From Escherichia coli (GTDB lineage: Bacteria > Pseudomonadota > Gammaproteobacteria > Enterobacterales > Enterobacteriaceae), in the NCBI RefSeq assembly GCF_046105845.1, contig NZ_CP151004.1: 64,000 nt of DNA; one strand, written 5' to 3'. Under the pieces are notes generated by a model that was not told the origin of the DNA, made no database searches, and saw nothing but the letters and a program-made list of their open reading frames with translations. The position numbers and the translations under genes were made by a program. Below, piece by piece: positions 3,968 through 36,009 of the stretch. Each line of letters begins with the position of its first letter. The stretch's first letter is position 1.

Positions 3968-4858
3968 ATGATCAAGAAGACAACGGAAATTGATGCCATC
4001 TTGTTAAATCTCAATAAGGCTATCGATGCCCACTACCAGTGGCTGGTAAGTATGTTTCACAGCGTAGTCGCGAGAGATGCCAGTAAGCCAGAAATAACGG
4101 ATAACCATTCTTATGGACTGTGCCAGTTTGGTCGGTGGATTGATCATCTGGGGCCACTCGATAACGATGAATTACCTTACGTTCGGCTAATGGATTCTGC
4201 CCATCAACATATGCATAACTGTGGTCGGGAATTAATGCTGGCTATTGTTGAAAATCACTGGCAGGACGCGCATTTCGACGCCTTTCAGGAAGGGTTGCTT
4301 TCTTTTACTGCGGCATTAACCGATTACAAAATTTATTTGCTGACGATCCGTAGCAATATGGATGTTTTGACGGGATTGCCGGGTCGTCGGGTTCTTGATG
4401 AATCCTTTGATCATCAGTTACGCAACGCTGAGCCTCTGAATCTTTATTTAATGTTGTTGGATATTGACCGATTTAAATTGGTTAATGATACCTACGGGCA
4501 TTTAATCGGCGATGTAGTACTACGCACCCTGGCAACTTACTTAGCCAGTTGGACGCGTGATTACGAAACGGTTTATCGCTACGGGGGGGAAGAATTTATC
4601 ATTATTGTTAAAGCGGCTAATGATGAAGAAGCATGTCGTGCAGGTATCAGAATTTGCCAGTTAGTCGATAACCATGCCATCACACATTCTGAAGGGCATA
4701 TCAACATTACCGTGACTGCAGGTGTGAGTCGCGCATTTCCTGAAGAGCCTCTGGATGTGGTCATTGGAAGAGCGGACCGGGCAATGTATGAGGGTAAGCA
4801 AACCGGAAGAAATCGCTGTATGTTTATTGACGAACAAAATGTGATTAACCGAGTTTAA
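3968..4858 (+). CDS. dgcZ: Zinc-sensing diguanylate cyclase (CZB domain + GGDEF)
   Basis: ORF 3962..4858; conserved start MIKKTTEIDAILLNL at 3968; active-site motif RYGGEEF present; matches DgcZ/YdeH (296 aa). Confidence 0.93.
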   Translation: MIKKTTEIDAILLNLNKAIDAHYQWLVSMFHSVVARDASKPEITDNHSYGLCQFGRWIDHLGPLDNDELPYVRLMDSAHQHMHNCGRELMLAIVENHWQDAHFDAFQEGLLSFTAALTDYKIYLLTIRSNMDVLTGLPGRRVLDESFDHQLRNAEPLNLYLMLLDIDRFKLVNDTYGHLIGDVVLRTLATYLASWTRDYETVYRYGGEEFIIIVKAANDEEACRAGIRICQLVDNHAITHSEGHINITVTAGVSRAFPEEPLDVVIGRADRAMYEGKQTGRNRCMFIDEQNVINRV

Positions 4859-4904: not shown

Positions 4905-5002
4905 ATCCGTTATCAGTGCAGGAAAATGCCTGTTAGCGTAAAAGCAAAACACAAATCTATCCATGCAAGCATTCACCGCCGGTTTACTGGCGGTTTTTTT
5001 TC
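4905..5002 (+). ncRNA. mgrR: MgrR small RNA (PhoP-regulated, Hfq-dependent), ending at an intrinsic terminator
   Basis: Position between dgcZ and mgtS as in K-12. 3' end set by the hairpin plus T8 run at about 4976-5001; 5' end is inferred from the expected ~98 nt length and was not read from a clear -10 element. Confidence 0.4.
4976..5001 (+). terminator. Rho-independent terminator (ccgcc...ggcgg stem followed by TTTTTTTT)
   Basis: GC stem followed by a run of 8 T read directly from sequence. Confidence 0.7.
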
Positions 5003-6680: not shown

Positions 6681-7580
6681 ATGTCGCGAAAAGATGGGGT
6701 GTTGGCGCTACTGGTAGTGGTCGTATGGGGGCTAAATTTTGTGGTCATCAAAGTGGGGCTTCATAACATGCCACCGCTGATGCTGGCCGGTTTGCGCTTT
6801 ATGCTGGTTGCTTTTCCGGCTATCTTTTTTGTCGCACGACCGAAAGTACCACTGAATTTGCTGCTGGGGTATGGATTAACCATCAGTTTTGCGCAGTTTG
6901 CTTTTCTTTTTTGTGCCATTAACTTCGGTATGCCTGCTGGTCTGGCTTCGTTGGTGTTACAGGCACAGGCGTTTTTTACTATCGTGCTTGGCGCGTTTAC
7001 TTTCGGTGAGCGACTGCATGGCAAACAATTGGCGGGGATCGCCTTAGCGATTTTTGGCGTACTGGTGTTAATCGAAGATAGTCTGAACGGTCAGCATGTG
7101 GCGATGCTCGGCTTTATGTTGACCCTGGCGGCAGCATTTAGTTGGGCGTGTGGCAACATCTTCAATAAAAAGATCATGTCGCACTCAACGCGTCCGGCGG
7201 TGATGTCGCTGGTAATCTGGAGCGCATTAATCCCAATCATTCCCTTCTTTGTTGCCTCGCTGATTCTCGATGGTTCCGCAACCATGATTCACAGTCTGGT
7301 TACTATCGATATGACCACCATCTTGTCTCTGATGTATCTGGCGTTTGTGGCGACAATTGTTGGTTATGGGATCTGGGGGACGTTACTGGGACGCTATGAA
7401 ACCTGGCGGGTTGCACCGTTATCGTTACTGGTGCCCGTAGTAGGACTGGCAAGTGCGGCACTATTGTTGGATGAACGCTTAACGGGTCTACAATTTTTCG
7501 GGGCGGTGCTCATTATGACCGGGCTGTATATCAATGTATTTGGCTTGCGGTGGCGTAAAGCGGTAAAGGTTAGAGGCTAA
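6681..7580 (+). CDS. eamA: Cysteine/O-acetylserine exporter (DMT/EamA family)
   Basis: ORF 6660..7580; conserved start MSRKDGVLALLVVVVWGLNF at 6681 gives 299 aa as in EamA/YdeD. Confidence 0.93.
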   Translation: MSRKDGVLALLVVVVWGLNFVVIKVGLHNMPPLMLAGLRFMLVAFPAIFFVARPKVPLNLLLGYGLTISFAQFAFLFCAINFGMPAGLASLVLQAQAFFTIVLGAFTFGERLHGKQLAGIALAIFGVLVLIEDSLNGQHVAMLGFMLTLAAAFSWACGNIFNKKIMSHSTRPAVMSLVIWSALIPIIPFFVASLILDGSATMIHSLVTIDMTTILSLMYLAFVATIVGYGIWGTLLGRYETWRVAPLSLLVPVVGLASAALLLDERLTGLQFFGAVLIMTGLYINVFGLRWRKAVKVRG

Positions 7581-21786: not shown

Positions 21787-23205
21787 ATGCATGTACAGCC
21801 CATTTCAACTTTCCGTTTGTTCCAGGAAGGTCATCTGCTACGTAATAGCATCGCTATTTTTGCGCTAACCACGCTGTTCTATTTTATTGGTGCAGAGTTA
21901 CGGCTGGTTCACGAACTTTCTCTTTTCTGGCCGCTGAATGGCGTAATGGCGGGGGTGTTTGCCCGCTATGTCTGGCTTAATCGACTGCATTACTATGCGA
22001 TCAGTTATGTGGCAATGCTGGTTTATGATGCCATAACCACCGAATGGGGGCTGGTTTCACTGGCTATCAATTTCTCCAATATGATGTTTATTGTTACCGT
22101 CGCCTTACTGGTCGCGCGGGATAAGCGTCTGGGGAAAAATAAGTACGAGCCAGTAAGTGCCTTACGGCTATTTAATTACTGTCTGATTGCCGCATTATTA
22201 TGCGCTATTGTCGGGGCGATTGGTTCGGTCAGTATTGATAGTCTGGATTTCTGGCCTTTGCTTGCCGACTGGTTCAGTGAGCAATTCTCAACGGGCGTGT
22301 TGATCGTGCCTTGTATGCTGACGTTGGCAATTCCTGGAGTGCTGCCGCGCTTTAAAGCAGAACAGATGATGCCCGCTATCGCGCTTATTGTGTCGGTTAT
22401 TGCCTCGGTAGTCATTGGCGGAGCGGGGAGTCTGGCGTTCCCGCTGCCTGCATTAATCTGGTGTGCAGTGCGCTATACGCCGCAGGTAACATGTCTGTTG
22501 ACCTTTGTCACCGGTGCGGTTGAAATCGTACTGGTGGCAAATTCGGTGATTGATATCTCGGTCGGTTCGCCGTTCTCCATTCCGCAAATGTTCTCCGCAC
22601 GTCTCGGTATTGCCACGATGGCGATATGCCCAATTATGGTTTCTTTTAGCGTGGCAGCGATCAATTCGCTAATGAAGCAAGTTGCGCTGCGAGCCGACTT
22701 TGATTTTCTGACTCAGGTTTACTCACGGTCCGGTCTTTATGAGGCGCTGAAAAGTCCATCGCTGAAACAGACACAACATCTGACTGTCATGCTGCTTGAT
22801 ATCGACTATTTCAAAAGCATTAACGATAACTATGGACATGAATGTGGCGATAAAGTGTTAAGCGTGTTTGCCCAGCATATTCAGAAGATTGTCGGTGATA
22901 AGGGGCTGGTGGCGCGAATGGGCGGCGAAGAATTTGCTGTTGCAGTGCCATCGGTGAATCCTGTCGATGGTCTGCTAATGGCGGAAAAAATCCGTAAAGG
23001 CGTTGAACTGCAACCGTTCACCTGGCAACAAAAAACGCTTTATCTCACGGTAAGTATTGGCGTCGGTAGTGGTTGCGCATCGTACCGAACGCTGACCGAT
23101 GACTTTAATAAATTGATGGTCGAAGCCGATACATGTCTGTATCGCTCGAAGAAAGATGGGCGCAACCGTACCAGCACTATGCGTTACGGTGAGGAAGTTG
23201 TCTGA
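21787..23205 (+). CDS. dgcF: Membrane-anchored diguanylate cyclase (N-terminal multi-TM sensor domain + GGDEF)
   Basis: 472-aa ORF with hydrophobic N-terminal half and GGEEF active site (ARMGGEEFAV). The true start may lie downstream; older K-12 annotations of yneF are shorter. Confidence 0.8.
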   Translation: MHVQPISTFRLFQEGHLLRNSIAIFALTTLFYFIGAELRLVHELSLFWPLNGVMAGVFARYVWLNRLHYYAISYVAMLVYDAITTEWGLVSLAINFSNMMFIVTVALLVARDKRLGKNKYEPVSALRLFNYCLIAALLCAIVGAIGSVSIDSLDFWPLLADWFSEQFSTGVLIVPCMLTLAIPGVLPRFKAEQMMPAIALIVSVIASVVIGGAGSLAFPLPALIWCAVRYTPQVTCLLTFVTGAVEIVLVANSVIDISVGSPFSIPQMFSARLGIATMAICPIMVSFSVAAINSLMKQVALRADFDFLTQVYSRSGLYEALKSPSLKQTQHLTVMLLDIDYFKSINDNYGHECGDKVLSVFAQHIQKIVGDKGLVARMGGEEFAVAVPSVNPVDGLLMAEKIRKGVELQPFTWQQKTLYLTVSIGVGSGCASYRTLTDDFNKLMVEADTCLYRSKKDGRNRTSTMRYGEEVV

Positions 23206-23378
23206 CATCTTTATTCATTCACAGCGATTTTAATGGAATGTGTTCTACCACTTTATTGAGCGAATAAAAGGCGTAGTTCCTCGATTAAACCATGATCCGC
23301 GCCACACTTTTCTCATAAAACTGCTCATTAATCATCAGGAGTTGATCAAAACAGGGGTTCGGCGTATTAAAGTTTGCT

Positions 23379-23405
23379 AACCTGTCGTACCAATTCAAAC
23401 AGGTT
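23379..23405. promoter_or_regulatory. Perfect 7-bp inverted repeat (aacctgt-N13-acaggtt) about 30 bp upstream of uxaB; candidate ExuR/UxuR operator
   Basis: Palindrome read from sequence; uxaB is a known ExuR regulon member; the assignment is inference. Confidence 0.35.
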
Positions 23406-23432
23406 GTATGACTAATCAGAAGGGAACCCATT

Positions 23433-24884
23433 GTGAAAACACTAAATCGTCGCGATTTTCCCGGTGCACAGTATCCAGAACGTATCATTCAGTTTGGTGA
23501 AGGTAACTTCCTGCGCGCCTTTGTTGACTGGCAAATCGATCTCCTGAATGAGCACACCGATCTGAATTCTGGCGTGGTCGTTGTTCGTCCGATTGAAACT
23601 TCATTCCCACCGTCACTGAGCACACAGGATGGTCTGTACACCACCATTATCCGTGGCCTGAATGAGAAGGGTGAAGCGGTCAGCGATGCGCGTCTGATTC
23701 GCTCGGTTAATCGTGAAATCAGCGTCTACAGTGAATACGATGAATTCCTGAAACTGGCGCACAATCCGGAAATGCGCTTTGTTTTCTCTAACACCACCGA
23801 AGCGGGTATCAGCTACCATGCGGGCGATAAATTCGATGACGCGCCGGCGGTAAGTTATCCGGCAAAACTGACCCGTCTGCTGTTCGAACGTTTTAGCCAT
23901 TTCAACGGTGCGCTGGATAAAGGTTGGATCATCATCCCGTGTGAGTTGATCGACTACAATGGCGACGCGTTGCGTGAACTGGTTCTGCGCTATGCGCAAG
24001 AGTGGGCACTGCCAGAAGCATTTATTCAATGGCTGGATCAGGCTAACAGCTTCTGTTCTACGCTGGTGGACCGTATCGTTACCGGTTATCCGCGCGATGA
24101 AGTGGCTAAACTGGAAGAAGAACTGGGTTATCACGATGGTTTCCTCGACACCGCTGAACACTTTTACCTGTTTGTGATTCAGGGTCCGAAATCCTTAGCG
24201 ACTGAACTGCGTCTGGACAAATATCCGCTCAACGTGCTGATTGTTGACGATATTAAACCGTACAAAGAACGCAAAGTGGCAATCCTCAACGGTGCGCACA
24301 CCGCGCTGGTGCCAGTGGCGTTCCAGGCTGGGCTGGATACTGTAGGTGAAGCGATGAACGATGCTGAAATTTGTGCATTCGTTGAAAAAGCCATCTACGA
24401 AGAGATTATTCCGGTACTGGATTTGCCTCGTGATGAACTGGAATCTTTCGCCAGTGCAGTCACCGGACGTTTCCGTAACCCGTACATCAAGCATCAGCTG
24501 CTGTCTATCGCGCTCAACGGTATGACCAAGTTCCGCACACGCATCCTGCCGCAGCTGCTGGCAGGGCAGAAGGCAAACGGCACACTTCCGGCGCGCCTTA
24601 CTTTCGCATTAGCGGCATTGATTGCGTTTTATCGCGGTGAGCGTAACGGAGAAACATATCCGGTACAGGACGATGCACACTGGCTGGAACGTTATCAGCA
24701 ACTCTGGAGCCAGCATCGTGACCGTGTTATCGGCACCCAGGAACTGGTAGCGATTGTTTTGGCAGAAAAAGACCACTGGGAGCAGGACCTGACGCAAGTG
24801 CCTGGTCTGGTCGAGCAGGTTGCTAAGGACCTGGATGCGATTCTCGAAAAAGGAATGCGCGAAGCTGTACGTCCGTTGTGCTAA
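23433..24884 (+). CDS. uxaB: Altronate oxidoreductase (tagaturonate reductase)
   Basis: 483 aa; GTG start; matches UxaB. Confidence 0.93.
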
Positions 24885-35532: not shown

Positions 35533-36009
35533 GTATTCTTATTTCCCTTCTTTTAGATCTGGTTTGTTAAATGCCAGCTTGCAGATTCATCGTTCCATCG
35601 CCAGTAATATATTCAAGGGGAAATTGCTATTTTTCTTAAAATATTAAGCATAACCCTTATTTTATAGCGAATATTCCTAAAGACATAAATGAATGAAAAA
35701 GAGTTTTAATAGAGTTCTTTTTTAGCAATTAATGCTATTCTTTGTTAAATATGATGATGGTAATTTTCTTATTGAAAGAAACATTTTTCTTATTAAGCAA
35801 CAATAACTCATGGTTCATTTTTAAATAAAATAAGAACTATGCAATTTTTAATCTATCAATTCGAAAGTATTAGCAAATGAGCCAAATTGACACCTTCCCA
35901 CCTCCAACCAACACTCAATACAGACCTCTGACAACTTAATAAGTTTCATTTTTAACGTCTGATGACTCATCTCTTTCGTGGCTGTATTGTTTGTATATGG
36001 AGCGTTTAT

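Follow-up and report, generated by a model that had tools for sequence, protein, structure and literature searches.

The window, the whole 64,000-nucleotide (64-kb) stretch of Escherichia coli DNA that was analyzed, contained a diguanylate cyclase gene (positions 21787-23205, plus strand; 472 amino acids), the K-12 counterpart of which is annotated as dgcF, and, beyond its stop codon (TGA at 23203-23205), uxaB on the same strand (23433-24884), encoding a tagaturonate reductase (altronate oxidoreductase) of 483 amino acids. The segment 22700-24000 was matched in 5,418 of 5,426 complete E. coli genomes, in which the annotation likewise gave a diguanylate cyclase gene followed by uxaB. The start codon of uxaB, which the preliminary description of this DNA had read as GTG (23433-23435), was confirmed: the same codon is the RefSeq-annotated start in strains PCN033 and K-12 MG1655 (the upstream sequence of the latter is identical to that of the window), it is the first in-frame start following a stop in the uxaB frame, and it was GTG in 79 of 80 orthologous loci of other Enterobacteriaceae (ATG in the remaining one), where the protein matches began at residue 1. 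A Shine-Dalgarno-like AAGGGA (23420-23425, plus strand), conserved across genera, was located 7 nt upstream. Since annotation, conservation, reading frame, and the distance from the Shine-Dalgarno sequence all agreed, the GTG start of uxaB is genuine, ancient, and ordinary.

A perfect inverted repeat, AACCTGT-N13-ACAGGTT, was present at 23379-23405 in the intergenic region, exactly as described beforehand, with arms of 7 nt each (23379-23385 and 23399-23405) that were 100% complementary and separated by 13 nt; its center (23392), previously placed about 40 bp before uxaB, was 41 bp upstream of the G of the start codon (23433). The occurrence of such a palindrome is within chance expectation: perfect 7-bp inverted repeats (spacers of 0-20) numbered 199 in the window, corresponding to about 0.7 per 230 bp, and dinucleotide shuffling yielded at least one equivalent repeat in 25% of cases for the full 227-bp intergenic region and in 9% for its last 100 bp, while an expectation of 0 applies only to this exact sequence and not to palindromes generally. 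A population survey revealed at least 99% identity over 23362-23432 in 4929 of 5411 E. coli records; this is ordinary within-species conservation, and is uninformative on selection on the palindrome arms.

We then aligned 200 bp upstream of the start codon of uxaB loci from 80 species of Enterobacteriaceae (84-99% protein identity). Three blocks were conserved at 90-100% among the 81 sequences: TGnTAAnnT (23375-23383), ACCAAT (23389-23394), and CAGGYTGTATGACTAATC (23400-23417). The first of these corresponds to an extended -10 element, TGCTAACCT (23375-23383, plus strand), with the hexamer TAACCT at 23378-23383, in which T23375, G23376, T23378, A23379, and T23383 were invariant in 81 of 81 sequences and A23380 was found in 77. 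An experimentally validated transcription start of uxaB has been reported at 1608744 (U00096.2), 40 nt upstream of GTG (PMC4447067 Table 1), with the -10 region printed as AAGTTTG-CTAACCT-GTCGTA (PMC4447067 Table S3), and this -10 assignment agreed with the invariant TGnTAAnnT, which was derived independently. The start point on the plus strand is given here as 23389-23393, a 4-nt uncertainty arising because the published coordinate corresponds to 23393, whereas the published -20 to +1 string ends at 23389-23390. A strict scan of 23100-23500 with sigma-70 and terminator consensus sequences returned nothing, because the -35 element of uxaB is weak and an extended -10 element is not modeled by the scan; a weak -35 element also fits the CRP dependence stated in the literature. 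An alternative promoter, TTGATC-17-TATTAA (23342-23370), which would have placed the palindrome at the 5' end of the mRNA, was rejected, as other genera do not conserve TATTAA and the -10 sequence in the literature is TAACCT.

The position of the start point bears on whether the palindrome may be an RNA stem-loop in the 5' leader of uxaB, affecting mRNA stability or translation. The arms can indeed be drawn as a stem of 7 bp closing a loop of 13 nt, upstream of the Shine-Dalgarno sequence. However, since the start point (23389-23393) lies inside the palindrome, the left arm, which overlaps 5 nt of the -10 hexamer (23378-23383), is untranscribed, and no such hairpin is formed in the RNA. Furthermore, the predicted stability was marginal (z = -1.69), an Rfam search gave no match at an E-value of 1 or less, and no covariation was found at the aligned arm pairs in 81 sequences. 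We consider a role as an RNA element to be scarcely credible.

The arms themselves were poorly preserved as a pair. Full complementarity, with all 7 pairs formed at the aligned arm positions, was restricted to 4 of 81 species-level sequences; 51 had three or fewer complementary pairs, and substitutions breaking the arms were already present in an E. coli reference genome (L074) and in Escherichia sp. L003. Upstream of the conserved ACCAAT came a triplet that varied freely and, before it, AA[G/C][T/C]T[A/G]T. The left arm, AACCTGT, has its true partner not in the right arm of the palindrome, but in ACCAATT (23389-23395), only 3 bp away. Together they form a predicted 17-bp ExuR box, AACCTGT-CGT-ACCAATT (box A; 23379-23395, plus strand), with a near-invariant ACCAAT and a variable central triplet, the free variation of which is as expected for a dyad operator. 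A second predicted box, AGGTTGT-ATG-ACTAATC (box B; 23401-23417, plus strand), was found in the 5' untranslated leader; its conserved part, TGTATGAC (23405-23412), was, like ACCAAT, conserved at 90% or more. The central ATG of box B never varied, and this could reflect a constraint other than ExuR. The centers of boxes A and B are 22 bp apart, or about two helical turns, and the two boxes are arranged in tandem on nearly the same face of the helix. Both kept their distance from the start codon in the other species, against a background of 0.46 hits per kb scoring at least 9 bits: box A recurred at -46/-47 (75 of 80 species had it between -45 and -50), and box B at -24/-25 (76 of 80 had it between -23 and -28).

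The comparison with the uxaCA and exuT operators that the preliminary description had recommended was performed using the exu locus of K-12, which contains the boxes AAGTTATCACACCAATT before uxaC, AAGTTGTATGACAAGTT before exuT, and AAGTGGTATAACAAATA before exuR, and the loci of ExuR homologues from eight further genera, from Klebsiella to Serratia and Hafnia, aligned with that of E. coli. These three boxes were invariant or nearly so across the nine genera, while their surroundings diverged, and all were of the 17-bp form AAGTnGT-N3-ACnAnTT. Boxes A and B of uxaB share this architecture, and the N13 palindrome lies outside it. Box A is nearly the same as the uxaC box, with AAGTTATCACACCAATT being the sequence of box A itself in some genera, and box B resembles the exuT box, AAGYTGTATGACAAGTT, with YTGTATGAC common to both. 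All of the boxes of the exu regulon, including those of uxaB, are located at or beside core promoter elements; uxaB differs in having tandem boxes 22 bp apart and, in addition, two distal boxes (see below).

The relationship was recovered in both directions with position weight matrices (PWMs). A PWM built only from the orthologues of uxaB box A returned the uxaC box as the top site in the 10-kb exu locus of K-12 (22.9 bits, where the background did not exceed 14.1), and that built from the orthologues of box B returned the exuT box as the top site in the same locus (15.3 bits). Conversely, an independent PWM, trained only on the uxaC, exuT, and exuR boxes of the nine genera and hence on just three box classes, was applied to the whole 64-kb window (127,968 positions). 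Its four highest-scoring distinct sites were all within 223 bp upstream of uxaB: distal box 1 (AAGTTGTCTGACATCTT; 23195-23211, plus strand; 14.7 bits), distal box 2 (AAGTGGTAGAACACATT; 23237-23253, minus strand; 13.8 bits), box B (AGGTTGTATGACTAATC; 23401-23417, plus strand; 12.8 bits, rank 4), and box A (AACCTGTCGTACCAATT; 23379-23395; 11.5 bits on the minus strand and 10.4 bits on the plus strand, rank 6). No site other than the two distal boxes, which share the intergenic region with them, ranked above boxes A and B. Box A of E. coli was the weakest of the four sites (10.5-11.9 bits), and its AACC variant departs from the AAGT of all training boxes.

These results bear directly on the proposal of the preliminary description that the palindrome is an ExuR/UxuR operator. 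If the 7-N13-7 repeat itself were the operator, one or two dimers of ExuR (or UxuR) would contact both arms, and several features are compatible with this: the left arm conforms to AAnnTGT, the ExuR half-site; of the 6 positions specified in the complementary half-site, ACAAnTT, 5 are shared by the right arm (ACAGGTT), which is located exactly 10 bp (one helical turn) past the true right half-site; and the palindrome is centered on the transcription start. However, the half-sites are 3 bp apart, and not 13, in all conserved boxes of the exu regulon, and a 17-mer using the right arm as a half-site scored only 3.2 bits, compared with 10.5-13.3 bits for boxes A and B; to this are added the loss of complementarity in most species and the broken arms within Escherichia described above. 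We regard an N13 operator as highly improbable. The part of the proposal that held was the presence of an ExuR-type sequence at this position, the left arm being the left half-site of box A; the part that did not was the choice of the N13 dyad as the symmetry element, and boxes A and B, but not the palindrome, match the 17-bp N3 form of the uxaC and exuT operators.

Assignment to UxuR was not retained either. UxuR is a paralogous repressor of the GntR/FadR family with a related half-site (AAATTGGT/ACCAATTT), and, according to the literature, the two regulators are linked by a common motif and by cross-regulation (PMC11806353; PMC9369180). The operators of the two nevertheless differed in spacing: the three uxu boxes (gntP, uxuA, and uxuR, in the gntP-uxuA intergenic region and the uxuR promoter) are TGGT-N2-ACCA, an even dyad of 18 bp, whereas the four boxes of uxaB are all GT-N3-AC. 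In 23181-23440, GT-N3-AC occurred exactly four times, corresponding to boxes A and B and the two distal boxes, and GT-N2-AC, the UxuR-type spacing, was absent; the N3 PWM gave no strong hit in the uxu intergenic regions. Since all four are GT-N3-AC and there is no GT-N2-AC, the boxes of uxaB are of the ExuR type rather than the UxuR type. Two other geometries were considered for box A, namely N1 (ATTGG-N-CCAAT, suggested by a perfect GTTATTGGACCAATAAC in Pluralibacter) and the UxuR-like N2, and both were rejected because the bases flanking the center on the left were not conserved and the other exu boxes fit N3 only. Operators of the FadR subfamily of GntR regulators are short t.GT.N3.AC.a dyads with a conserved GT...AC core and a variable center. 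As at uxaB, the repressor site in this subfamily overlaps the -10 element and the start point, and uxaB is unusual only in the tandem arrangement.

The sequences indicate that the N13 palindrome is not a recognition unit, but a by-product of two adjacent predicted ExuR boxes. The left arm (23379-23385, plus strand) is the left half-site of box A, and the right arm (23399-23405, plus strand) consists of 2 nt of the spacer between the boxes and the first 5 nt of the left half-site of box B. The palindrome has its origin in the left halves of boxes A and B: these are direct repeats, but their core (AAnnT) is nearly self-complementary, such that the AACCT of box A is the reverse complement of the AGGTT of box B. 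In most genera, the left half of box A is AAGTTAT, with which only 3 of 7 arm pairs are formed, and intermediate palindromes with arms of 5 and 6 bp were found in Citrobacter and some E. coli. At four positions in the arms (23381, 23382, 23384, and 23399), Escherichia carries a base other than that of the family consensus, and all four of these differences create base pairs. A few substitutions in the Escherichia lineage probably made the two left half-sites perfectly complementary.

The direction of these four substitutions is also what would be expected if the inverted repeat were a selected DNA structure (a cruciform- or hairpin-prone promoter) or the site of another symmetric protein, with a register varying by lineage. 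Independent perfect repeats enclosing box A were in fact found in other lineages: TGATAAG-N13-CTTATCA in Enterobacter/Lelliottia, AACCTGA-N20-TCAGGTT in Klebsiella, and repeats with 10-bp arms in K. indica and 11-bp arms in Intestinirhabdus. An enclosing repeat of at least 7 bp was present in 24.7% of sequences, compared with 2.9% under an independent-column null, but this excess is inflated and modest because the sequences represent only 3-4 independent lineages. Since the sequence, the register (centers from -2.5 to +2), and the spacer (4-20 nt) of the repeats all differed between lineages, no common protein site or structure is preserved, and more than half of the genera had no such repeat. 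The hairpin of the window was also weak (-4.7 kcal/mol as single-stranded DNA; z = -1.69), with 15 of 200 shuffles folding at least as well, and imperfect repeats could also become perfect in the absence of selection, by template-switch (quasipalindrome) mutation. A selected structure thus appears improbable. The recurring lineage-specific repeats may reflect selection for promoter symmetry or template-switch mutation acting on a quasi-palindromic operator pair.

A further conserved block, TTGATCAAAACAGGGGTTCGGC (23342-23363, plus strand), covered the -35 region, with TTGATCAAAACAGGGnTTC (23342-23361) conserved in the alignment. In other genera, this block reads CAAAAC-AGG-GTTTCA and resembles the KdgR boxes of kdgT, kdgK, and kduI: the sequence of most genera matched the TAAAAC-AGC-GTTTCA of E. 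coli kdgT at 13 of 14 positions, and, using a PWM built from four sites picked by eye, the block ranked first among the KdgR hits across the 6.4-kb locus for 66 of the 80 species. The copy in the window differs from these boxes in being degenerate (6.7 bits, rank 50). A CRP or FNR site at 23342-23361 was rejected because only one half-site fits either consensus and a KdgR box fits better. Elsewhere in the window, a strong hit of the KdgR PWM at 35692, in the AT-rich stretch separating lsrK from an autotransporter gene, was judged to be a likely chance match.

The two best hits of the ExuR PWM in the window were located further upstream of uxaB. Distal box 1, AAGTTGT-CTG-ACATCTT (23195-23211, plus strand), straddles the stop codon of dgcF, and distal box 2, AAGTGGT-AGA-ACACATT (23237-23253, minus strand), is 42 bp from it. 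Both were absent outside Escherichia and the C. amalonaticus group. The layout of uxaB, with two sites at the promoter and two at 140-210 bp upstream, is similar to that of looping systems, such as lac (O1-O2-O3), gal (OE-OI), and deo, but this likeness concerns the layout of predicted sites only. Since the distance between the distal and proximal boxes differed by 18 bp between E. coli lineages, their helical phasing is not conserved. A reading in which uxaB of Escherichia is a four-operator system, with the putative distal boxes cooperating by looping or acting as a roadblock to read-through from dgcF, and in which the repeats around box A stem from selection for symmetry or from template switching, is rather unlikely.

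We instead interpret the stretch in front of uxaB as probably comprising the core promoter of uxaB and its proximal ExuR operators, two tandem 17-bp boxes that would block the -10 element and the start point. With +1 at 23393, box A spans approximately -14 to +3, or -10 to +7 with +1 at 23389, and in either case covers the -10 hexamer and the start point, while box B spans approximately +9 to +29 in the early transcribed region. We infer from these positions that ExuR may occupy boxes A and B and act as a steric block. RNA polymerase would use the extended -10 element and start at approximately 23389-23393. When no hexuronate-derived inducer is available, ExuR dimers on the two boxes would occlude the -10 element and the start site, and the bound repressor would either keep RNA polymerase off the promoter or hold it there by blocking promoter escape. 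Inducer would free ExuR and allow the transcription of uxaB, with translation from the GTG at 23433. Under this two-box model, a change of TGTATGAC to TCTATCAC would derepress uxaB.

uxaB is a classical gene of the exu regulon; its regulation is already known, and work on its control region goes back to the 1980s. Operator-constitutive mutants were reportedly obtained by Mata-Gilsinger et al. in 1983, and the sequence of the uxaB control sites is said to have been described by Blanco and Mata-Gilsinger in 1986 (J Gen Microbiol 132:697). Comparative-genomic motifs for ExuR/UxuR reportedly appeared in Rodionov et al. (2000) and Suvorova et al. (2011), and Tutukina et al. (2016) is said to be a primary paper in this operator literature. 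According to the literature, ExuR acts on uxaB as a repressor (PMC3688515 supplement; PMC8612250) and CRP as an activator (PMC3688515 supplement), and both galacturonate and glucuronate induce the uxaB promoter (PMC3578941). The mechanism proposed here fits both this induction (PMC3578941) and the repression by ExuR (PMC8612250).

The value of the present analysis as a discovery is small, while its corrective value is practical: for the annotation or engineering of the uxaB promoter, for example in galacturonate biosensors, the functional units to be considered are the two predicted 17-bp GT-N3-AC boxes and the extended -10 element, and not the N13 palindrome. The locus also provides a cautionary case, in which tandem half-sites that are nearly self-complementary give rise to spurious long-range palindromes. 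If the distal boxes were functional, uxaB would illustrate, in a compact natural setting, how a GntR-family repressor can act through multiple operators.

The top two matches to an ExuR PWM trained only on uxaC, exuT and exuR boxes, across the entire 64-kb window, were a pair of predicted distal ExuR-type boxes, AAGTTGTCTGACATCTT (23195-23211) and AAGTGGTAGAACACATT (23237-23253, minus strand), which are 42 bp apart and both upstream of the uxaB promoter, at a distance of 140-210 bp. Distal boxes were also detected in other Escherichia (uxaB loci L003, L004 and L074), with a different sequence and a position shifted by 18 bp, and a single one was present in the Citrobacter amalonaticus group; among the uxaB loci compared, none was found outside Escherichia and this group. 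The box at 23195-23211 extends across the stop codon of dgcF, the diguanylate cyclase gene that precedes uxaB; the dgcF ORF (21787-23205) encodes 472 aa here and in PCN033, and is annotated as only 315 aa in K-12 MG1655 (dgcF-uxaB locus L084, 4908-5855). Since dgcF and uxaB are codirectional, and a scan of 23100-23500 detected no site resembling an intrinsic terminator between them, read-through from dgcF into uxaB is conceivable. The predicted distal boxes may serve as auxiliary operators or form a roadblock against such read-through.

Closer to the gene, a CRP-like sequence, CATGATCCGCGCCACA (23291-23306), matched 7 of 10 core positions, and its center lies approximately 91-95 bp upstream of the uxaB transcription start site, a class I position; this candidate may be the CRP site that the literature mentions for uxaB. 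Perfect inverted repeats enclosing the ExuR box and the transcription start were found around box A (23379-23395 in the window) in other lineages, their sequence and register differing by lineage: L019 and L024-L080 (Enterobacter and Lelliottia), and L049, L077 and L079 (Klebsiella). Inverted repeats of at least 7 bp around box A occurred in 24.7% of sequences, against 2.9% expected under an independent-column null, and template-switch mutation and selection for symmetry are both candidate causes of this excess.

The GT-N3-AC spacing was common to every box of the exu regulon (uxaC, exuT, exuR and uxaB), whereas the uxu-regulon boxes (at gntP, uxuA and uxuR; 4350-4367, 4459-4476 and 7405-7421 in the K-12 uxu locus L083) were spaced TGGT-N2-ACCA. 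ExuR-type and UxuR-type sites differ by one base in dyad spacing; the two paralogous repressors are said to share a motif. In the K-12 exu locus (L002), a further ExuR-like box, ATGTTGTGATACCAATC (1682-1698), reached 14.8 bits when scored with the PWM for uxaB box A, and lies downstream of uxaA, barely within the annotated 5' end of ygjV; this predicted box could be a ygjV operator, or a sign that the ygjV start is mis-set. At the same locus, a CRP site, TTTGTGATnnnnCTCAnC (4954-4975), directly upstream of the exuT ExuR box was well conserved in the alignment (9/9 genera).

The most conserved block upstream of uxaB (23342-23363) reads CAAAAC-AGG-GTTTCA in most genera, and is similar to the E. 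coli KdgR boxes at kdgT, kdgK and kduI. In the other Enterobacteriaceae loci (L003-L082), this KdgR-box-like block lies approximately 60-100 bp upstream of the uxaB start. In 66 of the 80 species, it outscored every other KdgR-PWM match in the 6.4-kb locus, with a median of 16 bits. In E. coli, the block is degenerate (GGTTCG) and scores 6.7 bits, a pattern that suggests KdgR control of uxaB which decayed in Escherichia. In Hafnia (metagenome scaffold L093, 259-3373), uxaB has no separate locus and lies between uxaC and uxaA in a uxaC-uxaB-uxaA operon; therefore, the stand-alone uxaB promoter is specific to part of Enterobacterales.
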